This document shows, one piece after another, positions 3,599-23,219 of a DNA stretch of 30,313 nt. This DNA is from a virus (taxonomy: Duplodnaviria > Caudoviricetes). The stretch lies in IMG/VR virus record IMGVR_UViG_3300036793_000157, positions 1 to 30,313 of that record, one strand, 5' to 3'. Under the pieces are notes generated by a model. That model worked only from the letters and a program-made list of their open reading frames with translations, had not been told where the DNA came from and searched no databases. Both the position numbers and the translations under genes were made by a program. Positions within the stretch are counted from its first letter, which is position 1. Every line of letters starts with the position of its first letter.

Positions 3599-3635
3599 TC
3601 TAACGTTTGGTCTTCGACTTCTTCTTGAAGACAGG
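3599..3635 (-). promoter_or_regulatory. Candidate late promoter motif (upstream of scaffold, overlapping protease 3' end)
   Basis: Minus strand CCTGT-N20-CCAAA-CGTT-AGA, 37 nt span similar to the other copies; last triplet deviates. Confidence 0.4.
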
Positions 3636-6008
3636 ACCCTTGTCGTCGTCGGAGTCGTCGTCATCGTCCTTGGGCGCTCCATCGGAGGACTTCACCGCAA
3701 CACCCGGCTGATCATCGTCCTCGTCGTCGTCATCCGGAGCGGAGTCCTTGTCGGCGTCTTTGTCGCCGCCCTTGGGGTCCCACTTCGGACCCTCGTCGTC
3801 CTCGTCGGAGGAATCGTCGTCGTCCTCAGCCGGTTCCTCACCGGGGATGGCTCCGGGCGCACCCTCGTCGCCTTCTTCCGCTTCGAGGTCTCCCTGGCTC
3901 TCCAGGAGGCCCTTGCCGCACGCGGGGCAGACGTCGCCCTCTGCGGCGCCGCCGGTCTCCTCGGTCTCCTGAGTGGCCACGTCGGGCGCGGTCTCGTCGG
4001 TGTCCACGGACTCCGGCTGCTCCTCGGGGAACTCGGTCCCGCAGTTGTCGCAGATCAGCGTCCCGTCGCCTTCGCCCTGCGCCATCTTGTCCGGGTCGGC
4101 CATCTGCGTCTGGTCGAACTGCTGTTGCTGCTGCTGGAGGTTGATCTTGGACGCCATGTCCAGGTCGGGGTCGTTGAACGGGCTCGGCGGGGCGACGTAG
4201 CCGCAGACGGGGCAGTTTTTCCCGTCATATGCGTCGTCCTCACCACATATCGGACAATTTTCGTCCCTCAGGGTGTCGATGTTCGGCGGAGCGAGCGTCT
4301 CTCCGTACGCGAGGTGCCGGGATGCCACGTAGCCCGTCCCAGGGCCCGCGTGGCCGTCGGGAATGTGCTTCTGGCGGAAGTCGTCCCAGCCCTTCTCCGC
4401 GTTCGTCCGGGAGACCTCTCGACCCTTGTTCAGCCGGTCGTTGTTGCTGTCGGTCCCCTTGGCGGCCGCTTCCGCTTCCTGGTTCTTCCGCTGCTGGACG
4501 AGCCAGGTCACCGCCTGCACCGCGTGGCCAGGGATGTGCTCGCCCTCCTGCTTGGAGATGTGCTGCGCCGCCTGGTGGTAGGCGTTCACCACGTGGTCGT
4601 ACCCGGCCGACCGGTTCATGGTCCCGTCCTTGCGCCGGGACCCTCCACTGACCGGCGCGGCGTTGTAGTCCTCGCTCGACATCCGTTTGCCGGTGGCCAC
4701 ACCCAGCGCGTGCCGGTCGATGACCACGTGGGAGACGTGCTCCGGGTGGTCCTCGGGGTGCTCGTCTCCGCCGTGCTCGATGAGGTGGGCGAAGTCCCTG
4801 ATCTTGGGCCCGCTCACGACGTCGTTGTAGTGCTTGCCGGAGAGCACCTTGTCCATGGAGTCGGACTGGCTCTTGGAGGCGAAGATGCCGGATCCCGGGC
4901 CGCCGATGCCGTGGCCTTCGTGCAGCGCTCGCGCTGCGTTGTGCATGTTCCCGGCCCACCCCTGCTGAGGGCTGTAGATGGCCAGGGCGCCCGCGCCAAG
5001 GTGCGAGTCACCGTTCGGATGCCGGGCATCCTTGTCCCCCTCGGACTTGCCAGGCCGGATCGGGGCGAGCTTCGCAATGCTCTTGGCCACCAGGTGCGCG
5101 TCGGGGTACCAGCGCTTCCCCTGAGCCTTCTCGTCATCGGTGGCGTCGTTCCAGTGGCTGATGATGTGGTCGGGATGCACCGGGTTCGCCTTGAAGAACG
5201 GGTGATCCACCGGATCGACCCGCGCGGCCTCCTTGTGCATCCTGCTCGGGTCGAAATCCCAGCGCTCTGCGTTGTACGGCTCCATGATCGGTTCCTTCCG
5301 CACCACATGGATGCGCTCGCGGGAGGCCGTGCGCTGGAGCCCGGCAGTGAGGTGTTCGAGGCCGGATCCGACAACGGGGTCACCCAGCGTGAATGCCGTC
5401 GGGTCTGCGGGAGGCTCGACGAGCAGGGAGTTCTCGAAGAACCGGAGGCCGTAGCAGGTCTCGAAGATGTGCCGACCCTTCTTGCCCGAGGCGAAGAACT
5501 TGCGCCCCTTCTGCCCGGGGATGTGCTGGCAGTAGCTGAAGGTGTCGGTGGCCTTGTTCCCGCAGGCGCTGCACACCGAATGGTCGACGTCGACACCCAT
5601 GGAGGTGCGCTCGATCTCCCTGCGGAGGATCCTCTGCGCGAGCTTGGGGAAGGTCAGCGCGTCGACTTCCTGAAGGCCTTCGACCCAGGTGTCGGGGGAT
5701 CCGTCGGAGTTCTTGTGGTGGTGCAGTGCCGCGTCGACGATGACCCCACGCGCCCGGTAGTGGTTCTCGTTGTGGTGACTGATGAAGACCGGCTTGCCGA
5801 GGAAGGTCTGCCAACCCTTGGTGATCTCATCGGCGGGGAAGCCGTCCCAGTTGTCGTTGACCCTGCTGGAGATCATCCGCGAGCGGACGTAGATCATCCC
5901 CTGCTTGGGCTCGAACTCGAAATTATGCCGCGCGGCGTTCCGGATCAGGCCGTTCCGAGGAAGCTCCATCGCCTCCAGCATCGTGGTACTGGCCCACTTT
6001 TTGATCAC
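3600..6008 (-). CDS. Capsid maturation (prohead) protease fusion: protease + inserted glycosylase-like domain + Zn ribbons + acidic tail
   Basis: N-terminal NDNWDGF...GKPVFISHH...RTSMG...CSACG...CQHI...FFENSLLVEPPADP (His/Ser herpes/HK97-type protease pattern). Middle domain KRWY...YSPQQGW..N...SGPKIRDF...VIDRHA...VQAVTW. Four CxxC pairs and a D/E-rich tail. Confidence 0.7.
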   Translation of the reverse strand: MIKKWASTTMLEAMELPRNGLIRNAARHNFEFEPKQGMIYVRSRMISSRVNDNWDGFPADEITKGWQTFLGKPVFISHHNENHYRARGVIVDAALHHHKNSDGSPDTWVEGLQEVDALTFPKLAQRILRREIERTSMGVDVDHSVCSACGNKATDTFSYCQHIPGQKGRKFFASGKKGRHIFETCYGLRFFENSLLVEPPADPTAFTLGDPVVGSGLEHLTAGLQRTASRERIHVVRKEPIMEPYNAERWDFDPSRMHKEAARVDPVDHPFFKANPVHPDHIISHWNDATDDEKAQGKRWYPDAHLVAKSIAKLAPIRPGKSEGDKDARHPNGDSHLGAGALAIYSPQQGWAGNMHNAARALHEGHGIGGPGSGIFASKSQSDSMDKVLSGKHYNDVVSGPKIRDFAHLIEHGGDEHPEDHPEHVSHVVIDRHALGVATGKRMSSEDYNAAPVSGGSRRKDGTMNRSAGYDHVVNAYHQAAQHISKQEGEHIPGHAVQAVTWLVQQRKNQEAEAAAKGTDSNNDRLNKGREVSRTNAEKGWDDFRQKHIPDGHAGPGTGYVASRHLAYGETLAPPNIDTLRDENCPICGEDDAYDGKNCPVCGYVAPPSPFNDPDLDMASKINLQQQQQQFDQTQMADPDKMAQGEGDGTLICDNCGTEFPEEQPESVDTDETAPDVATQETEETGGAAEGDVCPACGKGLLESQGDLEAEEGDEGAPGAIPGEEPAEDDDDSSDEDDEGPKWDPKGGDKDADKDSAPDDDDEDDDQPGVAVKSSDGAPKDDDDDSDDDKGPVFKKKSKTKR

Positions 6009-6030: not shown

Positions 6031-6067
6031 TCACCCATTGGGCTGCGTAGGGCCAGGTGAGAACAGT
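6031..6067 (-). promoter_or_regulatory. Candidate late promoter motif (upstream of protease)
   Basis: Minus strand ACTGT-N20-CCCAA-TGGG-TGA. Confidence 0.55.
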
Positions 6068-7692: not shown

Positions 7693-7734
7693 GTGGGTAC
7701 CTCCCTCTTCGTCACCTGGATGGATCCAGAACGC

Positions 7735-7899: not shown

Positions 7900-7913
7900 G
7901 AGAAGCTCCTTCG

Positions 7914-8385: not shown

Positions 8386-11091
8386 TCAGATGAACAGGCC
8401 GGTCGCGTCGACACCGTCGCGCGCGAGAGCCTCGTCGATGAGTGCGTAGTGGGTTCCCTGGATTTGCAGGTCGCCCAGGTTGCGGGCGCGCCTGCCGTCG
8501 TTGCCCTCGTTGATGATCTCCTGCTGCTCGGCGAAGTCGAAGTCTTTCAGGGCCGTCTTCGCCAGGTGCGCGGACGCTGCCTTGGCGATGTCCTGGTCGT
8601 CCTCGGACTCCGCTGGGGTCATCAGGTCCTGGGCCGCTGCGGTGGTCTGGAAAGCCGCCACGATGGCCGCGAGGTCGTCCACGGGGTTCGCACTCGCGTG
8701 GTAGGAGTTCGGGGTCGTGCTGCCTCCCTGGAGCAGCGAGATGCCGCTGTTCTGGTCGGGCACGAGGTCCGCGCTCTGCGGAGGGTTGTCCGGGATCGGG
8801 TCGAGGTCATCCGGAGTGATCTCCGGGTGGTACGGCGGCAGGTGGTCTCCGGACTCGTTCTCCCCGTAGGCCACGGGCAGCGCGGGCTCCGGCTGCTCGT
8901 GCAACGCACCGTCGAAGCCGAGGGTGGGAATGAGGTTGTTCGGCGACGCGTCGAGGTTGTTCCAGTTGTCCGGGTCCTCTGCCGCCGCCCATCCGGTGCT
9001 CGCCGGGTTGGTGGTGTTCGAGTGCTCGGGCTGGCTCGTACCCCGGCCAGGTTGTGGATTTGTGTTGCTGATCGGGTCCCAGGCGGCCGCCGTCTTGGTG
9101 TTGTCGAGCGAGGCCTTGGCGATCTCTTTCCACGGGGCATCTTTTAGCTCCGGGCGCAGCGCGGGGTTCTTCTTCGCGTGATCGACATCCCACCAGGCCG
9201 CCTGCTCGTGATGATCGCCCTTGGGGTCGTCCGGGTTGGGCGTGACCCGGCCGTCCCGCATGGAGATGCCCTTTTCCGAGGGGATCACTACGAGATGACC
9301 TGCGTAGATGCCGTTCGGACTGGTCCAGGTGTGCTTGACGACGCCGCCCTCAGGGAACGGCTGGCCGACCTCCTCTTCAAACTCCCTGATTCCCGCGTGC
9401 AGGCTTGTGAGGTCGCCGTCTTCGTGGTGGCCGCCGGGGGCTTCCCAAGTTCCGCGCGCGGGGTCCTTCTCATCGTCGAGCCCGCGCTGGATCATCAAGA
9501 TCCGCCCGGTGTCGTGGGCCTTGAGAAGTACTCCGGAGACGGATGGGCCCGTCGGCTCTTTGGCCGCGAGCACCGGGCCCAGCTGGTTGCCGTCCACCAT
9601 GCCCAGGTCAGGTAGGGACGCATGCGAACCTTCCTCGTGGCCGCTGGCGTCCTTCCAGAGGCTCACCGCCGCTGTGTGCCGCATACCGACGCGCAGGAGC
9701 GCACCGATGACCTCAGCCGGGTCTTCGTCGGCTTCCCGCATCTGTGCGACCAGGGATGCGACCAGGGAACCCTCGTAGGGCCGCGCGAGCACGTTCTGCC
9801 CGGTGTCCGGGTCGTACCGGACGATGGTCTGCACCTTCTCCGGGGGCTCGGAGGCGTGGACCTCTTTGCCGAACATGCCCTGCGACTGAGCCTCGAACTG
9901 GAGGGCAAGCGCGTGCGAGCATTTGCGGCCTTCGAACTTCTGGAAGGGCCCGCTGCGGTCGAAGGAGTACGCGGCCCATTTGCATCCGCACGTCCAGTCA
10001 CCCACCTTGCGGGTGCCCGGCCGGTAGACGAGCAGCGCTTCGTAGACCCCGTGATCCCCGGTCACCTGTCCGCCGATGCCGTCGGAGGACGCGATGACGA
10101 TGTGCACGCCGCCTTCGGCGCGGATCCGCTTGGCCTTCGCCTGCACGTCCCGCCAGGATGCGGTGATGTGGAAGCCGAGGTCCTTGTCTCGCGCTGCGGT
10201 GCGCAGGATGCGACCGGCGTCCGGGATCTCCATGGATCCTTCTTCCTGTGCCCGCGAAGCGGTGTGGTGCTTCGAGTCACCTTCGTCGTAGGTGTGGTGC
10301 ATCCATCCGTTGCGGTCGGCGTCCGGGTGTTCGGCGTCCGGCTTCCAGGAGATGCCGGTGACCTCGACCTTGCGCCCGCTACGGATGGGTACCTCGCGCT
10401 CCTTGCTGGAGTGGTCGAAAGGGAAGACCCCATTGCGGAAGAGGTGCTCCGGCCGGGTCTCGATGTCCTTGCGCGCAGGACCCTTCGCGTGCAGGACCAC
10501 GGGGATATCCGTGCGCGGGTCCATCATCCCGTTGTGGGCGAACTGCTGGGACCTGCGAGCGTCGGTCGTCCAGTGCATGCCCATCTTGGGACCCTCGGGG
10601 ATCGCGGCATGCAGCGCGTGGAGATGATCTTCTTTCGACGCCTCGGGGTTGTTGATCACGCTGGCGTGTTCGGGGCTCATCCGCGCGGCGAAGCCCCGGT
10701 GGATTCCGTCGTCCTCGACACCCGGGTGCCAGACGTCCCAGTCGGTCGGTTCCCCGTGCGCGCTGTTGGTGTGGCTCGGCGTGTTCTGGTCGCGCTTGAC
10801 CTCGTGCAGGAACTTGATCGGAGAATCCGGGTGCCTGTTCTGGATCTCGTTCATCATGGCCGAACCGGATCCGGGCGTATCCAAGCTCGGGCTCAGGCTG
10901 TCGATGTGCACCGGGGCGCCCTTGCGCTTGGGCGGGAAGTAGTCCACCTGGCCGCCGGACTGCCGTGTCTCCGGGTCGGTGGCCCGCAGGGTGTGCTTGA
11001 CGGGGAACTTCGTCCCGCCGGTCTGCTGCTCGTGCAGTTCGAGCGCGAACTGCCGCGCCGTGTGGAGAGGACCGGGAACCCACTGCATCAA
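8386..11091 (-). CDS. Multidomain protein: GNAT-like, ART-like, SWIM Zn finger, NUDIX hydrolase, C-terminal domain
   Basis: NUDIX box WEAPGGHHEDGDLTSLHAGIREFEEEVG (clear). SWIM CGC...CSH (clear). ART-like IHRG...MHWTTD...EREV (moderate). GNAT-like GQVDY...VHIDSL...PGSGSAMMNEI (weak). Confidence 0.75.
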   Translation of the reverse strand: MMQWVPGPLHTARQFALELHEQQTGGTKFPVKHTLRATDPETRQSGGQVDYFPPKRKGAPVHIDSLSPSLDTPGSGSAMMNEIQNRHPDSPIKFLHEVKRDQNTPSHTNSAHGEPTDWDVWHPGVEDDGIHRGFAARMSPEHASVINNPEASKEDHLHALHAAIPEGPKMGMHWTTDARRSQQFAHNGMMDPRTDIPVVLHAKGPARKDIETRPEHLFRNGVFPFDHSSKEREVPIRSGRKVEVTGISWKPDAEHPDADRNGWMHHTYDEGDSKHHTASRAQEEGSMEIPDAGRILRTAARDKDLGFHITASWRDVQAKAKRIRAEGGVHIVIASSDGIGGQVTGDHGVYEALLVYRPGTRKVGDWTCGCKWAAYSFDRSGPFQKFEGRKCSHALALQFEAQSQGMFGKEVHASEPPEKVQTIVRYDPDTGQNVLARPYEGSLVASLVAQMREADEDPAEVIGALLRVGMRHTAAVSLWKDASGHEEGSHASLPDLGMVDGNQLGPVLAAKEPTGPSVSGVLLKAHDTGRILMIQRGLDDEKDPARGTWEAPGGHHEDGDLTSLHAGIREFEEEVGQPFPEGGVVKHTWTSPNGIYAGHLVVIPSEKGISMRDGRVTPNPDDPKGDHHEQAAWWDVDHAKKNPALRPELKDAPWKEIAKASLDNTKTAAAWDPISNTNPQPGRGTSQPEHSNTTNPASTGWAAAEDPDNWNNLDASPNNLIPTLGFDGALHEQPEPALPVAYGENESGDHLPPYHPEITPDDLDPIPDNPPQSADLVPDQNSGISLLQGGSTTPNSYHASANPVDDLAAIVAAFQTTAAAQDLMTPAESEDDQDIAKAASAHLAKTALKDFDFAEQQEIINEGNDGRRARNLGDLQIQGTHYALIDEALARDGVDATGLFI

Positions 11092-13763
11092 TCCTCCACG
11101 AAGTGGTGAGGCGCCAGATCGCGCTTGTTCACGCGGTAGTGCTGCTCGCCGTCGCTGAATTCGTCGTCCAACTCCGCAAAGTGCTCGGGCACCCGGATGT
11201 GCACCACTGCGGAGCCGTAGCCACTCGTGTTCTCGTCTCCACGGCTGGTGGACCAGTAGGTGGATCCGTCGGGATCCTTGGCGTGCATCGCCTTGTCGTG
11301 ATAGATCGCCGATGCCGCTTCGGGGGTCGTTCGGTGGTAGAGGTCGAGCGGCTCCTCTTCGTGCGCGACGGCGATCTTGTGCACGGGTGCGGTGTTTGCC
11401 GAGCCGGGCCCCAGCGCAGCCTTCAGCTGGCTGGCAAGGCGCCCTCGCGCCCTCCGGAGCGGCACATCGTCGTACATATGGCCGTCATTGGGGTAGGTGC
11501 ACCACGGAGGGCACCCGCGCATCAGAGCATTGTTTTTGTGCGGCTTGAGGTGATGATCTTCGTGACTCTTCTGCCTGGCAGCTCGGTATTTTTCTTCTTG
11601 CGCAGCGTCTTCTTCGGGTGTTGTTTCCTCTTGGGCACCCTTGCCGTCGCAGTCGTCGCAAGGAGAGCGGAAGGTCTTTACTTCATCCGGATCTCCCTCG
11701 CCCTCCGGATCAGTATCGGTCCACTCCGTGTATCCCTTCCCCTTACAGGAATCGCAGGACAACATCTTCCGAGGTGTTTTGGCCATACCTGATGCTACCC
11801 GAAGGGGTAGTTCGATGGATCCTTTGGCCTGCATGAGAGCCATCGGGCCCGGCTCGGAGATCGGGCACACCTGCTGCTGCCACGGGGTGCTCCACGGACA
11901 CGGGCCACGGTCCTGGGGGATGGCCAAGGAGACGGCCGTGGAGTCGCCGGGAAACGTGCATCGGGCCTCCCGCCGCCAGGTGCACCAGTCGTGACCGGCC
12001 AGATCCGCCGTCTTCTTCTGGGCGCCGAACAGGGACAATTGCGCCCGGTCCACGGGCTCAGCCTTCTTCGGTCGTGGTGCGCGTTGCTTGGGCTCGGGAA
12101 CGGCTCCGTGGAAGGGGCCCTTCTCTCCGTCGTGGAAGGGCTCGTCCGGGTACGGCGAGTGGGCCACGTACGCCTTGACCGGGTGGTTCAACGACGCGGC
12201 CGCTTCGGCGCGGTGGTGCCCGTCGGCGACCTGGTAGACACCGTGCCGGTGCACGAGCACCAGGGGAGGCATCTTGTCCGGGTGCTCCTGGTACCCCTGC
12301 CTGGCCTGCTGGACCCGGTAGTCGTCCGCTCCGCTCGGGGAGAAGTCAATGTGCTTGGGGTGCACCGTCTTCTCGTGGAACTCCAGGTCGTGCACCGAGG
12401 AGTCTTCGGCGTCCAGGTGACCCGGGCGTTCGTGGGCGATGTAGTTGGCCGCGTCACCGATACCTGGGCCGTCGGCTCCGTCGGCGTCTTCCCCGTGGAT
12501 GTCCGCGTCGCCGTAGACGTGCGGGTGCCGGTCACCGATCTCGTCCCAGGACAGTCCCCTGGCTGCCTGCTTCTGCTGGCCCTCATGAGGAAGCATCTCC
12601 GCTTCCACGTGATCGTCGTGCACCTTGTTCACCCGCATGCGGGAGCCGCGAGGGAAAATCACTTCGCCAGGCGCACCCACGTAGTCGAGCAGGTGATGCA
12701 TCGGGATCGCGTGAGTCCCTGCGGGCACGTGAATGTGCATCAGCGTGTGGTCCGGGTCGCTATACCCCTTCGTCACGCCCTTGATGGTCGTGGTGGACAT
12801 GTGCGCCGGGTCGTGGATCTCGTCGCCCTCGCTGAGGTGGCCGACCGGTGCGGTGCGGTACACGGTGCTCGGGCCCTTGGTGGAGAAGCGCTGCGAGATC
12901 TGGTCCATCGAGTGACTGACGTCGCTGAGCTTGTGCATCTCCTCCTCGTCGTCCGTCTGCGTGTACTCCATGGGATGTCCACGCAGGTGCCGGTTCAGGT
13001 CCTCGTTGATCCCGTCGCCCGAGTAGGAGGACAGGTGGCCGTACTCGTCATCCGAGAGGCCGCCATCGCCGTGCACGTTCCAGCCGTCTTCTAAGGACTG
13101 CTTCGCCGCAGTGGTGGAGACCCGGGAGTCGAAGTCGATGAAGTCGTTGATCCCCGCCTGCCCGCCCGCGCCGGATGCTCCGGACGCCGGGTCCACGGTG
13201 CCGCGCGGGTGGTTCGACGGGTCGCCGATCAGCTCGGGAGTCCACTGGGCGCCCGGGTGCGCCGACATGGTGCCGCCGCAGTTGGCGCAGGTGGCCTGCC
13301 GGACCCGGCCGTTGTCCGTGGGGTTCTCGAACTCGGTGGCGCCGCAGTACGAGCAGCTGGAGGGCTGGGGGTCGTCGGCCTCGGGGTCCATGGTGGTCGC
13401 GGCCGCAGTGAACTCCAGTTTCCCGGGGTCGGGCCGGTCGGTGAGGATCGTGCCGAATTCCGGGTAATCCTCCGAAGCCAGGTGCACCTCGCCTGCGGTG
13501 GTCAGCGCGGCCGTGGTCTGATTCGGCTTGCTGAGGTCGCCGGGTCCGTAGGTGCCTCCGCCGAGCCCGTGGTCCAGGACGACGTCGTAGGTCTCCAGGC
13601 CGGGCAACGGGCCGTCCTGGACGGCTTTGACCTCACCCATGATGTTGTCGCAGGTCATGACCCGTTCGCCGGGCTGAAAGTCCCAGTAGATCTGGGAAAA
13701 GACGGCGTTCTTGGCCATCTCACCGGTCTCGTGCTGCCGGGCGACGTGGCGACGTACATACAT
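11088..13763 (-). CDS. Multidomain protein: Zn ribbon, VIP2/Alt-like ADP-ribosyltransferase, ParB/Srx domain, Cys-rich domain, DnaJ-type Zn finger, second ART-like domain
   Basis: 891 aa from ATG 13763 (SD GAGGAGG). YSG...LNRHLR...VYR...MSTT...GEVIFPRGS (R-S-E ART). PPLVLV...VADGHHRAEAA (ParB/Srx). CDSCKGKG/CDDCDGKG. LYHRTT...YWST...YG...E (His-type ART-like). Confidence 0.75.
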   Translation of the reverse strand: MYVRRHVARQHETGEMAKNAVFSQIYWDFQPGERVMTCDNIMGEVKAVQDGPLPGLETYDVVLDHGLGGGTYGPGDLSKPNQTTAALTTAGEVHLASEDYPEFGTILTDRPDPGKLEFTAAATTMDPEADDPQPSSCSYCGATEFENPTDNGRVRQATCANCGGTMSAHPGAQWTPELIGDPSNHPRGTVDPASGASGAGGQAGINDFIDFDSRVSTTAAKQSLEDGWNVHGDGGLSDDEYGHLSSYSGDGINEDLNRHLRGHPMEYTQTDDEEEMHKLSDVSHSMDQISQRFSTKGPSTVYRTAPVGHLSEGDEIHDPAHMSTTTIKGVTKGYSDPDHTLMHIHVPAGTHAIPMHHLLDYVGAPGEVIFPRGSRMRVNKVHDDHVEAEMLPHEGQQKQAARGLSWDEIGDRHPHVYGDADIHGEDADGADGPGIGDAANYIAHERPGHLDAEDSSVHDLEFHEKTVHPKHIDFSPSGADDYRVQQARQGYQEHPDKMPPLVLVHRHGVYQVADGHHRAEAAASLNHPVKAYVAHSPYPDEPFHDGEKGPFHGAVPEPKQRAPRPKKAEPVDRAQLSLFGAQKKTADLAGHDWCTWRREARCTFPGDSTAVSLAIPQDRGPCPWSTPWQQQVCPISEPGPMALMQAKGSIELPLRVASGMAKTPRKMLSCDSCKGKGYTEWTDTDPEGEGDPDEVKTFRSPCDDCDGKGAQEETTPEEDAAQEEKYRAARQKSHEDHHLKPHKNNALMRGCPPWCTYPNDGHMYDDVPLRRARGRLASQLKAALGPGSANTAPVHKIAVAHEEEPLDLYHRTTPEAASAIYHDKAMHAKDPDGSTYWSTSRGDENTSGYGSAVVHIRVPEHFAELDDEFSDGEQHYRVNKRDLAPHHFVED
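11796..11809. promoter_or_regulatory. Palindromic operator-like site TACCC-GAAG-GGGTA inside a coding region
   Basis: Same 14-mer as in the 25126-25153 promoter, in inverted orientation. On the minus strand it runs into TAGCAT, 5 nt before an in-frame ATG (MAKTPRK). Confidence 0.5.
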
Positions 13764-14503: not shown

Positions 14504-16686
14504 CAGGCCGTTTCCTCATCCCACTCGGGCTTCCACTGCTCTTTGCGGTCGATCTGGACGTACCGACGCATCCCGACGTGCCTCGGGTTTCCGTACAGAC
14601 CCTGCGGCCGGTAGTTCTCCGGGCGCGGCGTGACGCCCTCGTCGGTGACGACATCCTCGATCGAGTTGTCTGGCGCCGCGTAGTGCTTGAGCGTGGCCTC
14701 CCGGATCTGACCGCGCCGGTACTTGAAACCGGCGATCTTCTTCGCGGGCTTCGGCATGGTGGCCCTCGCTTCGTCGGATTCCGGCGGCCGCTGGTCTCCC
14801 GGCTGCGGTGCTTCCTCGTCCATCCCGCCCATGGGCTGGCCCGGCATGGGGATCACCTGACCGCCAGCGTCTCCGGCGTTGTCCTCGTCGGTGTCGTCGG
14901 CGAGGTCGTCCTGGCTCGGTGCGAGCGCCGGTGTGCCGACGTCCTGAGTGCCCAGTGTCAGCAGTGCCGCGTCTCCCGCGCTCTCGTCGGGGATGTTGAG
15001 CGCCTTCGGCTCGAAGTCGTCGCGGAGATCCTGGGCGATCGGCAGGCCTGCGTCCCGGAGCGCCTCATAGGTCTCCTTGCGGGTCTCCTGCTCGGCGACG
15101 GCGAGTCGGATCTGCTCCTGCTTCTTCTGCTCGATCATCTCTTCGAAGTCGAGGCCGGTGCCGAGGATGCTGCGCTCCACAGGGATGGGGACGCCCCTAG
15201 CCACGAGCGCCTCCATGAACTGGCGCTCCTGCTGCTGGTCGGCGAGGTTGAGGGTGTCGAACTCCAGCTCGGGAACGAGGAGCTTCGGCTGCTGGATGAT
15301 CTTCTGCTCGCCGGTCTCCTCGTCGACCTCCAGCACCTCCTCCATCTTGACGTACCGGCGCCCGTTGCGGACGTCGTAGTCGAAGTGCTCCTGCGCCTCG
15401 GCCACAATCCGGGCTCGGTCGTTGAAGAAGTCCTTGAGCTGCTGCTGGTGGTGCGTCATCAGCTCGGTGACCACGTCGCGGTTCAACGCGTCGGCGGCGT
15501 AGGTCTCCCCGGCCTCCGCTCCCTGGAGCATGGTGCGCGACAGGCCGAAGGTCTGGAGGATGCGGTCCTCCAGCCGGTCGAAGTCGCCGGAGAGGTCCGG
15601 CATCTCCTCGCGGCCGAAGACGCTCTCGATCTGAGTGGTGAAGTTGTCCACGAGCACCCGGAAGTCACCGGCCATGGCCATGTCGAACGACTCGCGGAAG
15701 TTCTCCAGGTCCTCCGGCGTCGGGATCCAGGGAACGTCCATGCCGAGGTCGGTCGCGGAGGCGCCGAGCTTCGCCAGAATCAGCGGGGTGTACAGCCGGT
15801 CGGCGATGGCGTCTTGGGCGGTGTTGAGCATCTCCTCCTGGAGGACTGCCCGGAAGGCCCGCATGATAATCGGAATGCCGCGCTTGTGGAACGGGTCCGC
15901 CTCGAACTTGACCTGCTTGAGCAGCATGTTGGAGACCGGCATCCGGCTGTTCTCGCCCGCGTAGGCGACCAGCTCGGGGTAGTTCTCGACGAGCTGGTTG
16001 AACTCCCATACCGGTTGCCGCTGGCGGAGCACGTCGCGCAGAGCCTGCGGGAGGCGGATCAGGAAGCGGGGGTCGCGGGAGAGGGGGCTGCGCTCCACGA
16101 AGACGTCGTTCGGGTGCAGCAGCTCCTCGGATTCCCAGACGCCCAGTACCTCGTTGAAGGTCCCCAGGGGGAAGGCCTCGCCGACCATCCACTTCTCACG
16201 GGAGACGTTCACCATGAAGTTCTTGTAGTCGAGCTGGTCGAAGAACAATTCCTCGTGGAATTCCTTGACCTTATTGTCCTTGCATTTAATGGCCATTCCC
16301 TGCAAGGGGTACTTCGAGAAAATGTCGATACAACTCGCGATGACCGGGTGGGTCAAATACAGGAGTCGGCAGAACTCCCGGAGTTTCGCCATTTCCTCGT
16401 CTTTGGAAATGTCGAAGGGGAGATTGTTCTGCCTCCAGTAGAACATCGGGTCGCGGGGTCGTCCCATGGCGAAGGCCAGGTTGGCGGACTCCATGCCGAA
16501 GCTGCCGCTCGACGTGTCGGCGAGCGGTCCGGTCGCCTGCTTCCGCAACGCGCCCTGCCGTCGGCTGTAGGCCATCTGCGCTCGGGCGGCCTTCTCGCGG
16601 TCCTCGCTGCTGGGCATGCCGGAACCCGTGGGGATGATGAGTCCCTTCGGGGTACCTCTGCGGTCGTTCACGCGGAAGTCAGGCAC
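14503..16686 (-). CDS. Portal protein
   Basis: 727 aa. Helical N-terminal part (FCRLLYLTHPVIASCIDIFSKYP), GEAFP...LLHPNDV, RGIPIIMRAFR, ILQTFGLSRTMLQG..TYA, acidic C-terminal tail. Typical portal architecture within the head module. Confidence 0.8.
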   Translation of the reverse strand: MPDFRVNDRRGTPKGLIIPTGSGMPSSEDREKAARAQMAYSRRQGALRKQATGPLADTSSGSFGMESANLAFAMGRPRDPMFYWRQNNLPFDISKDEEMAKLREFCRLLYLTHPVIASCIDIFSKYPLQGMAIKCKDNKVKEFHEELFFDQLDYKNFMVNVSREKWMVGEAFPLGTFNEVLGVWESEELLHPNDVFVERSPLSRDPRFLIRLPQALRDVLRQRQPVWEFNQLVENYPELVAYAGENSRMPVSNMLLKQVKFEADPFHKRGIPIIMRAFRAVLQEEMLNTAQDAIADRLYTPLILAKLGASATDLGMDVPWIPTPEDLENFRESFDMAMAGDFRVLVDNFTTQIESVFGREEMPDLSGDFDRLEDRILQTFGLSRTMLQGAEAGETYAADALNRDVVTELMTHHQQQLKDFFNDRARIVAEAQEHFDYDVRNGRRYVKMEEVLEVDEETGEQKIIQQPKLLVPELEFDTLNLADQQQERQFMEALVARGVPIPVERSILGTGLDFEEMIEQKKQEQIRLAVAEQETRKETYEALRDAGLPIAQDLRDDFEPKALNIPDESAGDAALLTLGTQDVGTPALAPSQDDLADDTDEDNAGDAGGQVIPMPGQPMGGMDEEAPQPGDQRPPESDEARATMPKPAKKIAGFKYRRGQIREATLKHYAAPDNSIEDVVTDEGVTPRPENYRPQGLYGNPRHVGMRRYVQIDRKEQWKPEWDEETA

Positions 16687-16711: not shown

Positions 16712-16918
16712 CTACGCGGATGGGGGCGCGCTCTCCGGCTCGGGGACGAGGGTCGATGTGACGGGGGCCGCTGCCTCCTCCACGATGCCGTAGTTGATCA
16801 GCCTACCCACCTCGACCTCGTCCGCCGGTGAATCGGTGGGCAATTCGACCGTGTCCCCGGGCTTGAACGTTCCCTGGGAATTTGTCCACGGGATCAGCAC
16901 TGTGTACGTGGGCATCAC
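16712..16918 (-). CDS. Small hypothetical (structural-type) protein
   Basis: 68 aa, YTVL...FKPGDTVEL...RLINYGIVEE. Overlaps the upstream stop. Confidence 0.6.
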   Translation of the reverse strand: MMPTYTVLIPWTNSQGTFKPGDTVELPTDSPADEVEVGRLINYGIVEEAAAPVTSTLVPEPESAPPSA

Positions 16919-18531
16919 GCGACTCCGTTCTTCTTGCGGATGACCCGCAGCATGGCCGCCCGATTCGGGGTGGACTCCAGGGCGATCCTGCGCAGGAGTT
17001 GGTCCTCGGTGAGCACCGTTCCCGAGGCGGTGCGGTAGGACTTCTTCGCGAACGGGTTCCCGCCGTCGTCGGCATCGACGTCGTCCGGGGGCCCATCCGC
17101 CGCCTGCGGGTCGTCGGTGGCCTCGGGGTCCTCTTCATCGCCCGGGGGCACGTCGATGCCGTCAGCGGCGTTCTGAGCCCGCATCATGTCGTCGGTGTCC
17201 TGGCCGGGCCACTGCGGACCCATGCCGGGCACCTGGACGGGCACTCCGTTGATCGTCTGCGGGAATGCCGGGTAATCGGGTTGTATCTGTACGGTAAAGC
17301 ACATTTTGCAAAATCCGCAGGATACGCTGCCGTCACTTCTGGCAATTACTTGCCCAGAACCGCATGAAGGACAATTACCCGTAAGAATGTTGTCTTCCAG
17401 CGTAAATGCGTTAGTCCCGTGGGCACGGATGCAATACACCGGTTCGATTTTCCCAGTGGGTCGTACTGATTCCACGGTCCATCCGAGTCGGGGCGGAACG
17501 GGCGTCGCCTTGACTCGTGCTCGCTGATCGTCGCGGAGGAAGAACTCGGGCAGGAGGTCGTCTGGTGCCAGGCTCATGTTGTGGATCATGCTCGTGACGC
17601 CGAAGCCGGTCCGGAGTTTGCTGCTCGGCTCGAAGGTCCCGATGCCCAGAACGAGCGCGATGTCGCGCACGTGGAGGAGATCGTCGATCGAAGACGACGA
17701 GATCGACGGGCAACCCTTGGCGTCCATTGAACCATCGGCGGCGAAGTAACCCATCAACCAGCCCAGTAGGTACTCGGGAGTGTCCGTCAAGGACGGGAGG
17801 GTCTTGGTGTACCCCTTCATCCCCGAGGTGTACCTCAGGCCCGGGACTCCCTTGTCCGTCTGGACTTCGTACGCCCGCGTGGCGATCTCGTCGAAGTACT
17901 TCGACAGATCGCGCTTGCTGCCCCACAGAGTGGCCACTCCGTAGGTGGTGGACTGCCGGTGCTGGATGGCGCCGTCGCCGAAGACGAAGCCCATACGGAT
18001 GCCCTCGCGGTCCGGCGTGATGTCGAACTGCTGGGGGCGCAGTTTCGCCAGCCGGTGACCCCTGCTCAGGAGATCCGTCGTCACCACGCGGTCAGGGCGG
18101 CGGACGAGCCACCGATGCCCGGCCGTGGCGCGGATGACCTTGGTCTTCTGGTTGCGCTTGAGCGTGACCTCCCACAACTCCTGCTCGCCCAGCTCCTGCA
18201 CGGGCGCCTGCATCCAGTAGCCGCCGTGGGGCTCGTCGATGGAGCCAGTGAGGACCCACTGAGTGGTGCCAGCCGCCTCCGCGAGCGTCATCACGCCGTC
18301 CCGGGTGAGGAACCGCGTCTCTCCGCCGAAGCAGTGATAAATGACTTGGGGGTCACCAGAATCGTGAGCCATCTTGATGATCGGCGGCATATCTTCGGAA
18401 AGAAGCCGTGCGAACTTCTGGGCCGGAGAGGCATCCTCGGGCAGCGGCTCGAATCCACTTCGGACTGCGTACCGATCGGTTCTGTTACTCATCTGGGTAT
18501 GGTATCCCGACGAGGTATCTTGATCAGTCAC
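16915..18531 (-). CDS. Zn-ribbon protein interrupted by a LAGLIDADG intein
   Basis: GTG 18531 with SD GGGAGG (alternative ATG 18492). The spliced product would read ...QVIYH|CPSCGSGQVIARSDGSVSCGFC..., followed by an acidic linker and a helical C-terminus. Confidence 0.8.
   Translation of the reverse strand: MTDQDTSSGYHTQMSNRTDRYAVRSGFEPLPEDASPAQKFARLLSEDMPPIIKMAHDSGDPQVIYHCFGGETRFLTRDGVMTLAEAAGTTQWVLTGSIDEPHGGYWMQAPVQELGEQELWEVTLKRNQKTKVIRATAGHRWLVRRPDRVVTTDLLSRGHRLAKLRPQQFDITPDREGIRMGFVFGDGAIQHRQSTTYGVATLWGSKRDLSKYFDEIATRAYEVQTDKGVPGLRYTSGMKGYTKTLPSLTDTPEYLLGWLMGYFAADGSMDAKGCPSISSSSIDDLLHVRDIALVLGIGTFEPSSKLRTGFGVTSMIHNMSLAPDDLLPEFFLRDDQRARVKATPVPPRLGWTVESVRPTGKIEPVYCIRAHGTNAFTLEDNILTGNCPSCGSGQVIARSDGSVSCGFCKMCFTVQIQPDYPAFPQTINGVPVQVPGMGPQWPGQDTDDMMRAQNAADGIDVPPGDEEDPEATDDPQAADGPPDDVDADDGGNPFAKKSYRTASGTVLTEDQLLRRIALESTPNRAAMLRVIRKKNGVA
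17374..18333 (-). mobile_element. Intein (320 aa) with LAGLIDADG homing endonuclease
   Basis: Block A CFGGETRFLTRDG, block B IRATAGHRW, LAGLIDADG motifs MGFVFGDG and LMGYFAADG, block F VYCI, terminal ILTGN followed by Cys+1. Confidence 0.93.
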
Positions 18532-19030
18532 GAGGCCCTCCCAGCGCCTGGCCGAGCAGCTCCCTGCTGGCCAGCCGGAGAACCTCGGTGCGGTCTTCCT
18601 CGTCCAGTTCGGCCAGGTGCTCGCGGAGACTGGCCGTCTGCCGGAGGCGGGTCTCCACGAGAGCCAGAGCTTCCTCCGCGTAGTCCCCGGCCTCCGCGAG
18701 GGCACCCTGGGATGCCAGCGACTGCACGACGCTGCCTGGGCCGCCCGTGGCCATCAGGTGCGCTGCGCCGGTGGTCCGGATGGGTCCGACGCTCAGGGAG
18801 TCCTCCAGGCCGTCCTGGGCAGCGAAGGAGGCGGTCACCCGCCGGTTGGCCGGTGCCACAGAGTCATCCAGCGAAGCGAGGAAGCTGACGCTGCCCTGCC
18901 GGGGTCCGCTCAGCCACTGGACGTGACCGGAGAGAGCTGAGGACAGGACAAGGATCTGGCCGTGCGACCCCAGCGGCGTTCCGTCGCTTCCGTCACCGAT
19001 GCTGGTGACCATCTGGCCCTCGTGGAACAT
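18524..19030 (-). CDS. Hypothetical head-module protein
   Basis: 168 aa, SH3-like N-terminus and helical C-terminus. Tightly coupled to its neighbours. Confidence 0.65.
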   Translation of the reverse strand: MFHEGQMVTSIGDGSDGTPLGSHGQILVLSSALSGHVQWLSGPRQGSVSFLASLDDSVAPANRRVTASFAAQDGLEDSLSVGPIRTTGAAHLMATGGPGSVVQSLASQGALAEAGDYAEEALALVETRLRQTASLREHLAELDEEDRTEVLRLASRELLGQALGGPRD

Positions 19031-19897
19031 TCACGCCTCCGGGTAGTGGAGCACCGACCGACGGGCCAGGTGAAAGGTCTCGGGCAGCGACAGACCCGGG
19101 TTCATCCGGGAGATCGTGGCCATCCGGGGGAACACCTGGCCGTTCTTCTTCCCTGCGAAAACCCGGCGGCCCTGGGAGAACGAGTCCCGGCCCCACTCCG
19201 TGCGCAGCGGCGGCCGATACGGGTCGACCTCGGGGTGCTTGTCGACGTCGGCCAGCGATCCGCACTTCTCGTGGCAGAACCAGTGCGCGTGTTCCCTCTG
19301 ATCCGCCCGCAGCGAGGTATCCGGCGCGTAGCAGACCGGGCAGCTCGCCTGCTTGAGCAGGACGCCTTCGGGCTCGACCTCGGTCTTCTTGCGCGCGAGG
19401 AACGGGGTCGTCGTCGAGTGGTTCGGGTAGTTGTGCGGGGCGACCAGGGGTGCGGGTGCGTCCGCCCCATAGCCGGGCGCCGGGTTGTGCTTGTCGTAGA
19501 CGTACAGGTTCGTCTCGCCGACCTGGCCGGGCACCGGGCGCGTGGGCGCGCGCGGGGTCAGGTCGGTGTGCACGGGCGCGTTCGTGGGGTTGGCACCCGG
19601 GCCGGGACCGGCGTACTCGTCCCATCCCGCCTCCGGGTCGTCGCCGACGTAGCCGGGCCACTTCTTGTCCCCGTCGGTCGGCGGCGGCATGCCGGGCTCC
19701 TTGGCGCCCTCGCGCATGAAGTCGGCGAACGAGGGACCGCCCTGGCGGGCGACGGCTACGGCCACCTTGCGCTGCTGGTCGGGGGTTCCGAACCAGACAT
19801 CCACGTTGGTGGATCCGCAGGCGTGCTTCACCAGGGGTGCGACCTCGTCGAGGTGACCCCGGTCCCCGCAGCCGAAGCAGACGATTTCGATGCTCAT
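19031..19897 (-). CDS. Zn-finger-containing hypothetical protein
   Basis: 288 aa from ATG 19897 (overlaps upstream stop, SD GAGGAG). CFGC...HACG and CPVC...CHEKC clusters with a Pro-rich linker. Confidence 0.65.
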   Translation of the reverse strand: MSIEIVCFGCGDRGHLDEVAPLVKHACGSTNVDVWFGTPDQQRKVAVAVARQGGPSFADFMREGAKEPGMPPPTDGDKKWPGYVGDDPEAGWDEYAGPGPGANPTNAPVHTDLTPRAPTRPVPGQVGETNLYVYDKHNPAPGYGADAPAPLVAPHNYPNHSTTTPFLARKKTEVEPEGVLLKQASCPVCYAPDTSLRADQREHAHWFCHEKCGSLADVDKHPEVDPYRPPLRTEWGRDSFSQGRRVFAGKKNGQVFPRMATISRMNPGLSLPETFHLARRSVLHYPEA

Positions 19898-21882
19898 CCG
19901 CGCTCCTCCTCGTCTTCGTCTTCTTCTTCGCCCGGGTTGCCGTCGGAGGAGTTGGTGGGGATCCCCTGGCGCTGTCGCTGAGGGGTGTTGATGTGCCGTT
20001 CTTCGGCGTTCTGGCGCGGCCGCTGCTTCACCGGGGCGTCCCAGTTGTTCGCGTCGTACTCGTCCCCCGACTCGACGCCTGAGGGGTTGTCGTCGCTGGA
20101 CCGGCCGATCGACTCCGCCTGGTGGTGCACTGCGGTGAACGGGTTGCTGCCGCCCGGCATGCTGCCCGCGCCCGGGGTCCCACCGGGAGTGCTTCCGCCG
20201 CCGGTCGCGAACGGGTTGCTGCCGGTCTGGTCGTTCGGGATGGTCATCGGGGATCCGGCCATCGAGCCGGGGCCGCCCGCCTCCATCGACGGCGGCGGGG
20301 TCGGCGCGTCGGAGGTGGACGTGCTCGACTGGTCGGTGGAGTCGCCCATGGAGGTGTCGGTCGAGGACACGTCGGCGGTCACCCACCGAGCACCCGTCTT
20401 GCTGTCGCCGACCTTGGCCACCCCGTACTGCTCGGCCCAGTGGTTGATGTGATCCACCACGGTGCTGCGGTCGTGCTTGGACCGACCAATCAGGCCCTTG
20501 GCGTTCTCGACGTCCTTGGCCGAGTAGATCGGGAACGAACCATCCGAGAGGGCGTGCCCACTTTTGGCCGCGTCATCCCTCTCGGACTCGGAGAAATCCC
20601 GCGCCTCACGGGTGGTCGACGCCATCACGCGGTTGCCCTGCTGGGCGACGATCCAGGGGTGGTCCTCGTGCAACCGGACACCGTGGCCCGGGTCGCCGCC
20701 GAGGTGCTTCCACACGTCGCCTTCGCGGTAGACCGGGGTGTTGCATCCGGCACACGCGCCGTGGTTGTCCTTCTCGGCCATGACCCAGATAGACGCCTGC
20801 TTCGGGGTGTTGCTGTAGGAGACCGGAGGAGCCGAGGTCGAGGACTGCGGGGTCTTCCCGTACATGTCGACGCGTTCGTCCGGCTCCGGCAGGCTCACGT
20901 CCGCCGGGAACCCGTTCTGCTGGTCGCCCGCGACACCTGCGGAGCCACCCGCGAAGTAGTCGGGGTTCGGTCCCGGACCGGTCTGGACGCCCTCGTCCAC
21001 GTAACCGGCCGACGCCCGGTGCTCGCCGAAGTTCATCGGCCGCTCGACCCAGCCCGCGTTCGGCGGCACCGACCAGTGGCCGGGCTGCATCGGGTACAGG
21101 CCGTTCATCGGATCCACCGGGTCGGGGCCCGCAGGAAACTGCGGGTACTGGCCGTCCGATCCGGTGTTCGGCCCGGCCTCCTGGCCGCCCGCGAAGTAGT
21201 TCGGGTTGCCCGCTCCGGTGCTGCCGCCCGCCGGTGCCTCGTCCGGCTCGTCGGCGGCCGTCTTGTGGAAGTCCTCCCACAGGTCCTCCACGTCGGCGCC
21301 CTTGAGGATCAGGTAGTCCTGCCTGATCGCCTTGGCCACGTGGGTGCGGAAGTCGGCGTCGGGGAACAGCTCGGCCATATCGTCTTCGCAGAGGGCCATG
21401 CGGTGGCCGAACTCGTCCTCAGTCATCGCTGCGCTCACGAACGGCCAGAGGGCCGCAGAGGCGATCTTGGCCCGGATGGCCCGCTCGTGCTGCATGTCGG
21501 CGTCGAGGTCCCGGGAAGCCTCGGTCCACAGGTCGATCGTCATCGTCTCCTCCATCGGTGCCCGCCGGGCGTTATGCAATGTCGTCACGTCCACGCTCGG
21601 ACCGGGCCCGACGTACGGGAGCGGGGAGTAGGGCGGCTTCTTGTCCGGGTTGGCCGGGTCGTTCCACATCGGATCCGTGGTGACCGGCTTCCCGACTGGT
21701 TCCGCGCCGTTATACGGGCTCGGTCCGCCGGGGGTGGCCGGGTCCTGCTCGTCACTGGCTGGCTCGAACGACAGATCCCGAGGGCTCTGAAATCCGTTGT
21801 TCGGGTCGGACGCCTGCGGGTCGAGGGTCATGCCCTCGATGTCCGCAGTCGACACGCCGTCGGCCAGCCGGTGAAGAGGCAT
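19894..21882 (-). CDS. Large low-complexity acidic protein with small embedded domains (putative internal head/core protein)
   Basis: 662 aa, Pro/Gly/Asp-rich. Repeated NP(N/D)YFAGG, CAGC...WKH mini-domain, ERDDAAKSGHALSDGSFPI...DVENA domain. Many K/R/H-x-A motifs. Confidence 0.65.
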   Translation of the reverse strand: MPLHRLADGVSTADIEGMTLDPQASDPNNGFQSPRDLSFEPASDEQDPATPGGPSPYNGAEPVGKPVTTDPMWNDPANPDKKPPYSPLPYVGPGPSVDVTTLHNARRAPMEETMTIDLWTEASRDLDADMQHERAIRAKIASAALWPFVSAAMTEDEFGHRMALCEDDMAELFPDADFRTHVAKAIRQDYLILKGADVEDLWEDFHKTAADEPDEAPAGGSTGAGNPNYFAGGQEAGPNTGSDGQYPQFPAGPDPVDPMNGLYPMQPGHWSVPPNAGWVERPMNFGEHRASAGYVDEGVQTGPGPNPDYFAGGSAGVAGDQQNGFPADVSLPEPDERVDMYGKTPQSSTSAPPVSYSNTPKQASIWVMAEKDNHGACAGCNTPVYREGDVWKHLGGDPGHGVRLHEDHPWIVAQQGNRVMASTTREARDFSESERDDAAKSGHALSDGSFPIYSAKDVENAKGLIGRSKHDRSTVVDHINHWAEQYGVAKVGDSKTGARWVTADVSSTDTSMGDSTDQSSTSTSDAPTPPPSMEAGGPGSMAGSPMTIPNDQTGSNPFATGGGSTPGGTPGAGSMPGGSNPFTAVHHQAESIGRSSDDNPSGVESGDEYDANNWDAPVKQRPRQNAEERHINTPQRQRQGIPTNSSDGNPGEEEDEDEEERG

Positions 21883-23219
21883 CAGTGGTTCCGGTTCTCC
21901 AGGAAGGCGACCCGCTGAGCGATGAACTTCTGGGCCCGCTGGATCTCCGGGTCCTGCTCGTGCTTGGACCCCGTGGCCATCTGTCGGCCGCCCATGTCGT
22001 ATTGGGTCGGCTGGCCGGGCTGGTAATTCATGCCAGGGTTGTTGGTGACGTTCTGGGCCTCGGCCGCGCCGTAGGGCTTCTCCGGCTGGCTGGGCTGGTC
22101 ACCGCCGTAGCCGTAGACGGGGTCCGGCTCGCCGAGGTTGTGTCCCGGTGCGCCCGCAGGCGGGGAGTCGGGCTGGTAGCCGCCCGCACCCATGTCCCCG
22201 GCCCAGCCGGAGTCGTCGTAACCCGCCTGCTTCATCGCGTTGGCGTAGACCTGCCGGGCGGCCGCGAGAGCCTGCCGGGACGCACCCTTGCGCTGGTCGC
22301 GCTCGGCGAGCTGCTGCTCGGTCTCGGCGATCACCTGGTTGACGTTCTGGGGCGAGGTCACCCAGGGGAACGCCACCTCCTGGGGCAGCGGTGTGGGCGC
22401 CGCGTGCGAGTCGTCCGGGCTTACCGTCTGCTGAACCTGGTCCAGGCCGGACACCGCCGTGTGGCGGCTGGCCGACCGCTGGTTGGTGGTCATCGTGCTC
22501 CCGTTCTGCTGTGTGCCGGTGTCTCCGTTGGCCTGATCCGCCGAGGGGTCGACGTGCCCGAGGGCCGGGTCATTGACCGGCACCACGTCCTGCGATGCGC
22601 CGGGGCCGTTGTTGGCCTCCAGCTCCTGAATCTGCGGCGCCCGCTCGGAGGTGGTGGCCTCCAGCGGAAGCGCGGCGTCGTAGTTGCCGTTGGAGAACGT
22701 GTCTGCGGGCATCCCCTGCTCGCCGACCTGGGGCAGCGTGCTCGCCGCCTCCTTGAGCGCACCGGTCTTCAGGTCACGGTTGCGCAGGTGGTTGATCTCC
22801 TCCAGGAAGCTGTCGTGCACCTGCTGCGCGCCGTCACCGAAGCTGCCTGAGATCACGATCGCGTGGCCGCGCGCCTGCTCGGCAAACTCGCCCCCGTCGG
22901 ACTTGACCTCGGCGGAGGTCCGGCCGTACCAGAGGGTCGCCTCTGCGGTGATCTGGTTGGCCAGCGTCGAAGTGTCGGCGGCCGTCTCGATCTCGCCGAG
23001 CCAGTCGGAGGCCGCCGTGATCCGGGAATGAGTGGGAACGGGGGTGAACCGCTCACCGATGGCCGTATTGGCCAGGTCGATGTCTCGTTCCGCCTGAGCC
23101 TGCGCGCGAAGCTGCTGCTGGGCTCGGGTGGCCTCCGCGACCAAGGTCTGCTGATCGGCGAGAGTCTGCGCCTGACCCGCTTCTTGCAGAAGCCGACGCA
23201 CGTCGTGGCTTGTGGGCAT
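21882..23219 (-). CDS. Gln/Ala-rich putative internal head/scaffold-like protein
   Basis: 445 aa from ATG 23219 (SD GAGGAAGG). First gene behind a late-promoter-like motif. Motifs RITAAS, KEAAS, RHTAV, KQAG. Confidence 0.65.
   Translation of the reverse strand: MPTSHDVRRLLQEAGQAQTLADQQTLVAEATRAQQQLRAQAQAERDIDLANTAIGERFTPVPTHSRITAASDWLGEIETAADTSTLANQITAEATLWYGRTSAEVKSDGGEFAEQARGHAIVISGSFGDGAQQVHDSFLEEINHLRNRDLKTGALKEAASTLPQVGEQGMPADTFSNGNYDAALPLEATTSERAPQIQELEANNGPGASQDVVPVNDPALGHVDPSADQANGDTGTQQNGSTMTTNQRSASRHTAVSGLDQVQQTVSPDDSHAAPTPLPQEVAFPWVTSPQNVNQVIAETEQQLAERDQRKGASRQALAAARQVYANAMKQAGYDDSGWAGDMGAGGYQPDSPPAGAPGHNLGEPDPVYGYGGDQPSQPEKPYGAAEAQNVTNNPGMNYQPGQPTQYDMGGRQMATGSKHEQDPEIQRAQKFIAQRVAFLENRNH

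Follow-up and report, generated by a model that had tools for sequence, protein, structure and literature searches.

Why do the head proteins of a phage carry unrelated enzyme domains, each set off from its neighbours by a similar short motif? The question is raised by IMGVR_UViG_3300036793_000157, a linear IMG/VR virus record of 30,313 bases (completeness about 20%, GC content about 65%) that we analysed at its full length and call the window. A sequence-only reading of positions 3,600 to 23,219 had proposed that these proteins are polyproteins with swappable enzyme cargo, delimited by [K/R/H]-x-A sites at which the prohead protease frees the enzymes inside the capsid for injection. Our analysis shows that the motif is restricted to head proteins, that it lies at swap junctions, that cargo is exchanged between carriers, and that the protease has the fold of known prohead proteases. 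As a whole, we consider it probable that these are carriers with exchangeable enzymes at a basic-x-Ala motif, that the protease cuts after the Ala, and that the freed enzymes are likely injected.

The window represents the head module of a Bxz1/Myrna/E3-type myovirus, with nearly all genes on the minus strand, where all features described below also lie; a tRNA scan of the window found none. PHROG or Pfam recognise the portal, the capsid, the cement and the head-maturation protease. Among the 229 phage records that match the capsid protein, 209 belong to Mycobacterium phages, and therefore the host is probably an actinomycete, judging from these matches; in the rows listed, capsid identity is 53–59% to cluster C, Phrappuccino, Finch, Skog, Pupper and Stormageddon. 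The comparison set consisted of 128 IMG/VR loci around capsid and portal genes and the head regions of 15 cultured actinophages and phage G (individual loci carry L numbers), while family-wide enrichment, carrier-layout and coarse BLAST counts cover the IMG/VR loci, the window and the first seven cultured phages.

A basic-x-Ala motif in head-module proteins

The open reading frames (ORFs) and motifs that had been named are all present on the minus strand, and of the 19 junctions named, 16 conform to [KRH]-x-A; STTAA, HITAS and VLAA do not. The expected enrichment of [KRH]-x-A-[AS] was also found, with 31 occurrences in head proteins (10.8 expected) versus two in the others (6.0 expected). Compared with within-protein shuffles, the nine head proteins of the window contain 93 [KRH]xA (66.1 in shuffles), 15 [KRH]TA (3.8) and 11 [KRH][TV]A[AS] (1.2). 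The corresponding numbers for the 24 other window proteins, with portal, capsid and cement set aside, are 37 (38.0), 2 (2.9) and 0 (0.9). At 93 matches versus 66, the loose tripeptide alone predicts sites poorly, and some of its matches fall within folded domains, for example in the strand of the ADP-ribosyltransferase (ART) that bears the catalytic Arg.

The narrow patterns were picked after inspection of the data, and the unbiased test ranks every one of the 8,000 tripeptides. In the non-redundant set of 115 head-module proteins (of 282; 88,601 residues), RTA ranked first (138 versus 33 expected) and KTA fourth (96 versus 19), and [KRH][TV]A[AS] occurred 178 times versus 25.5 in shuffles. 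The control set (576 proteins of 941, without the low-GC loci L039, L041 and L096) contained 95 of the latter versus 43.0. The three loci left out represent a relative of 44–46% GC whose protease frame is about 1,950 codons long and whose head proteins still bear the motif. Among 94 larger genes of Alice, the six most enriched are gp70, gp81, gp89, gp75, gp99 and gp90 (uncorrected p < 0.05), and 85 other Alice genes hold 14 [KRH]TA where 22 are expected. K-x-A is likewise enriched in gp7, gp14, gp19 and gp21 of phage G, a distant cultured megaphage for which particle proteomics exist; its portal and its protease are among the proteins that bear the motif. The most regular arrangement that we saw is that of Finch gp12 (L082:6105-8504), in which about nine small acidic segments each stand behind K-T-A or a close variant.

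The signal is carried at the protein level: the motif was counted 284 times in frame versus 75 after codon shuffling, 278 versus 316 in the +1 frame and 66 versus 48 in the +2 frame, and synonymous codon use at motif sites is near background. A DNA recombination signal at the motif was considered and rejected, given the frame-specific signal, the ordinary codons and the lack of a DNA repeat family marking the motif sites among the 20 largest shown.

Exchange of cargo at the motif

Domain gain and loss had been expected to break at the motif, and for most swap sites this is what we found. Among eight near-identical cluster C1 phages, [KRH]xA lies within 7 residues of 16 of the 22 distinct swap sites (4.9 expected) and [KRH]TA of nine (0.8 expected); in the clade of the window, the counts are 14 of 20 (4.7) and 9 of 20 (1.1). 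An acidic control pattern was not raised at swap sites (5/22 in C1 and 0/20 in the window clade). The clearest case is that of Alice gp75 and Bxz1 gp83, which share 93% identity as far as one [RH]TA and 96% from the next, with unrelated cargo between the two. The orthologues of gp98 offered no clean swap site. Orthologous carriers range in length from 260 to 2043 residues for the protease protein, from 281 to 1618 for the SWIM protein and from 153 to 1551 for the Zn-ribbon protein, some of these lengths being shortened by locus ends.

Cargo also changes carriers. The ParB-like unit of the window sits in the protease polyprotein of five relatives, its GNAT and ART-like unit occupies other positions in L093 and L094, and NUDIX is also found within the protease polyproteins of L018, L023 and L054. 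No homologue of the R-S-E type ART (12564..13103) was found among the predicted proteins of the other fetched loci. Sixty scanned proteins of relatives contain NUDIX, GNAT, Arr-type and polyvalent-type ART, LysM, zeta-toxin-like kinase and L5 gp82 domains. The sequence-only reading had taken all of the bracketed domains for swappable cargo; exchange holds for the enzyme domains, whereas the carriers have conserved parts of their own, namely the SWIM unit, the units at the N- and C-terminus and, probably, the Cys domain.

The boundaries of the ORFs themselves vary. The polyproteins at 8386..11088 and 11088..13763 (junction 11088-11091), compared with those of L085, L087, L088, L093 and L094, make up a single ORF in some relatives, and in others the split falls at differing module ends. 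In L004 (5705-7563) and L006 (5629-8199) the protease protein is encoded as three ORFs, of which the DUF7178 and tail ORFs retain short motif-ended leaders.

The prohead protease and its putative sites

The protease polyprotein (3600..6008, with a start that may lie at 5981) consists of the protease, glycosylase-like cargo and a Zn/acidic tail, and its gene adjoins those for the likely scaffold and the capsid within the head module. The earlier assignment of a prohead protease with an SMG serine is supported. As delimited by alignment and model, the protease domain (5325..5933) ends in R-T-A|S (Ala228) and has a T4 gp21/assemblin fold, with the putative catalytic residues His78 and Ser136 (SMG) invariant in 38 sequences. 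Its AlphaFold model (pLDDT 85) aligns best with T4 gp21 (5jbl; Z score 10.3, root-mean-square deviation (rmsd) 2.7, 127 aligned residues); herpes assemblins score Z 6.0–8.6, and ranks 1 to 15 are all gp21 or herpes proteases. PDB sequence searches with the protease and DUF7178 profiles gave no matches. The orthologues gp77 of Rhodococcus phage E3 and gp94 of Gordonia phage Pupper are annotated in GenBank as prohead or capsid maturation proteases, and phage G gp19 is 37% identical to the window protease. In excerpts from PMC12484599, phage G gp19 is detected in particles according to one passage and not detected according to another.

Candidate sites recur at fixed places. In 100 of 120 homologues (29 expected), the motif is found no more than 45 residues past the protease domain. 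The YGE domain could be anchored in 68 homologues, and in 49 of these the motif directly precedes it. At this pre-YGE site, P1 is Ala in 58, Gly in 7 and Ser in 3 of the 68, P3 is basic in 55, and P2 is free. The capsid leader ends in the motif, just before S[DE][DE]Y, in 39 of 42 distinct leaders; in the window, the major capsid protein (825..1865; PHROG 2522, E 1e-95; 53–59% to cluster C/AA/Finch-type capsids) has K-Q-A|T at Ala20 (codon 1806-1808). The portal (14503..16686; PHROG 2833, E 3e-139) carries K-Q-A|T at Ala51 (16534) and four more sites in its C-terminal tail. Twelve [KRH]xA sites are found in the protein at 2644..3564, which is likely the scaffold, to judge from its position and from its fusion to the protease ORF in several relatives. 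Such conservation, together with the analogy to related proteases, makes it likely that the motif is the phage's own prohead protease site and would be cut after Ala. P1 is assigned to Ala because of the conservation of the motif and the analogy with herpes assemblins: excerpts from PMC4498786 give YLQA-T and VQA-S as the most likely pseudorabies assemblin sites. Excerpts from PMC10052503 have the SPN3US protease cutting after A-x-E.

Cargo enzymes and tagged genes

The SWIM-anchor polyprotein (8386..11088; orthologue of Alice gp89, Myrna gp96 and Finch gp16) carries a cargo unit (10258..11055) made up of a GNAT-like domain (10789-11055) and an ART-like domain (10258-10773), running from H-T-A|R (11) to H-T-A|S (277). 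The conserved SWIM-type carrier unit (9670..10194; E 0.046, a weak call) lies between R-T-A|A (298) and H-T-A|A (473) and is followed by the NUDIX cargo (9088..9567), which ends in K-T-A|A (667). The conserved C-terminal unit (8389..8550), behind K-T-A|L (846), has matches in all seven cultured phages tested. The second cargo polyprotein (11088..13763) is fused to the 8386 ORF in L087, L088, L089 and L093. Its R-S-E type ADP-ribosyltransferase (12564..13103) extends from TTA|A to K-Q-A|A (400), and the ParB-like cargo (12006..12563, with DGHHR) ends in K-T-A|D (586). Next come a Cys-rich unit (11793..12005), present in most close relatives and ending in R-V-A|S (657), a DnaJ-type zinc-finger unit (11433..11792) ending in R-L-A|S (777), and a small ART-like cargo (11091..11369) behind K-I-A|V (798).

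The calls for the ART (Pfam ADPrib_exo_Tox, ART1, E 1.2e-11) and NUDIX (Pfam, E 2.2e-12) are firm, and those for the DnaJ zinc finger (Pfam, E 0.001) and ParB (PHROG, E 0.001) are weak. The GNAT call is backed through relatives, being linked to the Pfam-recognised GNAT of L091 and to Alice gp113 and gp115 by an HHalign score that is partly circular. The ART-like domain at 10258-10773 is homologous to the first cargo of Alice gp75; HHalign did not link the small C-terminal one (11091..11369; weak PHROG 6170 match and an Atlas lead to PARP at 16% of members) to other cargo, and as ARTs both are leads only. PADLOC returned a partial NUDIX match only.

The cargo of the protease polyprotein, DUF7178 (4308..5225, recognised by Pfam), lies between K-E-A|A (261) and H-L-A|Y (567). 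Its model (pLDDT 93) is closest to Thermotoga maritima OGG (3n0u; Z 10.2, rmsd 3.7, 177 aligned residues), and 19 of the 21 top rows are DNA glycosylases, the other two being queuine-salvage enzymes, though helical folds can give such Z scores by chance; a Foldseek search with the model was not significant. Lys141 and Asp170 of the domain are invariant in 30 sequences and may correspond to the catalytic Lys/Asp pair of HhH glycosylases. SEA-PHAGES records call some relatives glycosylase. On the strength of the model, DUF7178 is predicted to be an HhH DNA glycosylase.

An N-terminal tag of about 20 residues, with a consensus of roughly R-I-x-T-A-R-E-Q-x5-P-W followed by the motif, is shared in the cultured phages by genes that stand alone and encode, among others, DUF7178, a GNAT and a zeta-like kinase. 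The tagged genes are Alice gp98, gp99 and gp115 (L137), Myrna gp102 (L083:30488-32374), Skog 165, 166 and 173 (L133), Pupper 101 and 109 (L136) and Phrappuccino 57 (L135:21330-24596). A profile built from seven seeds recovered three more genes, one of them weakly (E 0.21), which gives about ten genes in all. The same profile had no match in the window or among the 128 IMG/VR loci. DUF7178 is thus met by two routes, within the protease polyprotein here and tag-borne in Myrna gp102 and Pupper gp101. The tag on stand-alone cargo genes is likely a second loading route in cultured relatives; by analogy it parallels the T4 capsid targeting sequence (CTS), and it is the best indirect sign of packaging. 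In the matching module of E3, gp70 is labelled a structural protein in GenBank, on a basis that the record leaves unstated.

Proposed fate of the cargo and alternative explanations

The proposed sequence of events is as follows. The carriers would co-assemble into the prohead core via their conserved units, and during head maturation the prohead protease would cut after the motif Ala, freeing enzymes of 8–33 kDa (the predicted fragment sizes) within the capsid. The same cuts would take the leader off the capsid protein, trim the portal, set the protease free and break down the scaffold. The folded cargo domains would stay in the capsid, like T4 IPI-III and Alt, and be injected with the DNA, after which the ART, GNAT, NUDIX, ParB-like and glycosylase domains may act early on host proteins, nucleotides or incoming DNA. 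For the retention and packaging of the fragments and their injection we lean towards yes, with somewhat better than even confidence.

Several results weigh against this explanation. Three named junctions out of 19 depart from [KRH]-x-A. Within the window the loose [KRH]xA is enriched only 1.4-fold, so that about two-thirds of its matches are at chance level, and the control set is itself enriched 1.7- to 2.2-fold for the narrow motifs, partly through unclassified head proteins within it. At swap sites, the reversed A-x-[KRH] is also raised (9/22 versus 3.4 expected in C1 and 12/20 versus 3.9 in the window clade), and therefore the junctions are basic and Ala-rich in general. A coarse BLAST test gave an excess of only about 2-fold ([KRH]TA at 29/225 and 38/324 ends), most ends being motif-free. 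The phage G capsid protein shows no motif enrichment (2 versus 3.4), the DUF7178 cargo of L004 and L006 is a separate ORF with a short leader only and no evident carrier, and a Foldseek search with the protease model was not significant (best E 0.098). In the published systems, about 80% of SPN3US head proteins are uncut and nearly all cuts remove N-terminal propeptides (excerpts from PMC10052503), and most T4 core fragments exit the head (excerpts from PMC9026906). The literature searched gave no cleavage, virion-presence or injection data for any member, and excerpts on the Myrna cryo-electron microscopy structure (PMC7150772), a Rhodococcus phage survey (PMC13313380) and the phage G tail (PMC8570332) contain no cleavage data.

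The alternative that survives best, which we nevertheless think unlikely, accepts the protease site and denies injection: the domains would exit the prohead, stay as packing, act late in the cell or act on DNA in the head, for example with the glycosylase and NUDIX taking care of the genome. The departure of most T4 core fragments just cited favours it, as does the presence of several units that are not enzymes but zinc fingers or acidic stretches of low complexity, and glycosylase and NUDIX suit repair or sanitation as well as conflict. Against it, cargo turns over fast even between near-identical phages, as in conflict genes, the ART, GNAT and ParB domains match types found in polyvalent proteins (excerpts from PMC5512222), and 8–33 kDa is the size range that T4 retains.

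It is less probable again, and in our judgement quite doubtful, that the motif is an uncut docking or assembly signal for scaffold or core and that the polyproteins are packaged whole. N4 virion RNA polymerase and some plasmid polyvalent proteins do travel uncut, and the motif has a basic, Ala-rich context; but the fixed P3, small P1 and free P2 at the protease C-terminal end, the capsid leader and the portal ends form the pattern of a maturation site, and the same protein encodes a fold relative of Ala-cutting proteases. Finally, if the pattern were a side effect of helical linkers rich in Ala and Arg in high-GC proteins, or a DNA recombination signal, this would account for the modest enrichment of the loose tripeptide and the raised reversed pattern. 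Such a reading is largely refuted and very improbable, as [KRH]TA is enriched 3.8-fold in a frame-specific manner and not in the 85 other Alice genes, the motif is kept in low-GC phage G (gp7, gp14, gp19 and gp21) and in the 44–46% GC relative, and the codons at motif sites are unconstrained.

Relation to known systems

The T4 system of gp21, IPI-III, Alt and CTS (excerpts from PMC9026906) resembles the present one in its protease fold, in a short motif on leader, scaffold and enzymes (an ART among them) that are packaged in T4 and would be packaged here, and in short N-terminal tags on unrelated cargo, which here occur in the cultured relatives as putative propeptides. It differs in that T4 cuts after Glu (LIE being a conforming site), whereas P1 is Ala, sometimes Gly or Ser, and P3 basic here, and in that T4 cargo has one domain per gene, whereas here several unrelated enzymes are chained in carriers, the protease-scaffold protein included. 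The phiKZ gp175 and SPN3US gp245 systems of proteases and ejection proteins (excerpts from PMC10052503) would share tripeptide-motif processing of many head proteins, among them portal, capsid and the protease itself; the SPN3US motif is A-x-Glu, and 13 of its 14 mapped sites remove N-terminal propeptides and do not separate enzyme domains. Herpesvirus pUL26 (excerpts from PMC4498786) has the same fold and an N-terminal protease freed from a C-terminal scaffold at an Ala site, but its sites have a hydrophobic or aromatic context, not a basic P3, and no enzyme cargo lies between protease and scaffold.

Polyvalent proteins (Iyer et al. 2017; excerpts from PMC5512222) are likewise multi-domain and fast-shuffled, and their ART, GNAT, ParB and NUDIX domains are predicted to enter the virion and to be injected; the Alice gp113 GNAT is mentioned there, and ART-PolyVal matches a relative. 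Their release is proposed to occur by a built-in zincin peptidase, and their assemblin domains are C-terminal only, whereas here the protease forms the N-terminal part and would work in trans on a defined motif; the excerpts describe no junction motif. The zincin MPTase hub domain is present in 36% of polyvalent proteins and is not obligatory, and Pfam found no match to it in the window proteins or the 60 relatives scanned. The present system works like T4 gp21/CTS/Alt and resembles the polyvalent proteins, and we class it as a variant and not a member because the Glu rule and the C-terminal assemblin feature do not apply to it. The GenBank records of E3 gp77 and Pupper gp94 give neither a cleavage rule nor a cargo architecture, and a literature search, with subscription papers and supplements outside its reach, found no description of a basic-x-Ala rule or of processing in cluster C/E3 phages.

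If correct, the proposed processing would supply a cutting rule for this phage prohead protease family, for which we found none in print, and explain the largest 'hypothetical' genes of more than 200 cultured mycobacteriophage and Gordonia phage records. The cargo segments would then be a ready list of candidate injected anti-defence enzymes, and the tag, as an actinobacterial equivalent of the T4 capsid targeting sequence, would serve to load heads with reporter proteins. We see an even chance that the system is a programmable virion payload, in which any enzyme domain recombined between two basic-x-Ala sites of a head carrier or placed behind the 20-residue tag would be packaged, cut free by a prohead protease specific for Ala, and injected; on a par with this is the idea that such a payload would be each phage's day-zero kit of ARTs, acetyltransferases, NUDIX and DNA glycosylase versus host defences, readable from its sequence. 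All of this can be tested directly in M. smegmatis with archived phages.

Other features of the module

The capsid cement or minor coat protein (1900..2454; Pfam Phage_cement_3, E 1.5e-28) has no motif matches. An inverted repeat with 40-nucleotide arms (727-837) spans the intergenic stretch directly after the capsid gene and before an HNH-like gene. Between the SWIM polyprotein and the protease (6067-8371) lie membrane and collagen-like genes that are possibly lysis-related; they show no motif enrichment, and relatives have a similar gene of about 300 residues at the matching place.

Upstream of the portal gene, the Zn-ribbon carrier (16915..18531) is without cargo here, its orthologues (153–1551 residues) having N-terminal cargo. 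Inside this gene is an intein with a LAGLIDADG domain (17374-18333), absent from most orthologues and found at the same place in L116. Two small conserved head-module genes follow (18524-19030 and 19031-19897, together 18524..19897), and then two motif-bearing head-module proteins (19894..21882 and 21882..23219), the first of which has an N-terminal domain in common with Finch gp12, Phrappuccino gp44 and, weakly, Alice gp81.

The head polyproteins of the IMG/VR loci and the window are also rich in His, at 4.4% versus 2.5% in controls, with 8–10% in several cargo units and 2.3% in the cultured phages.

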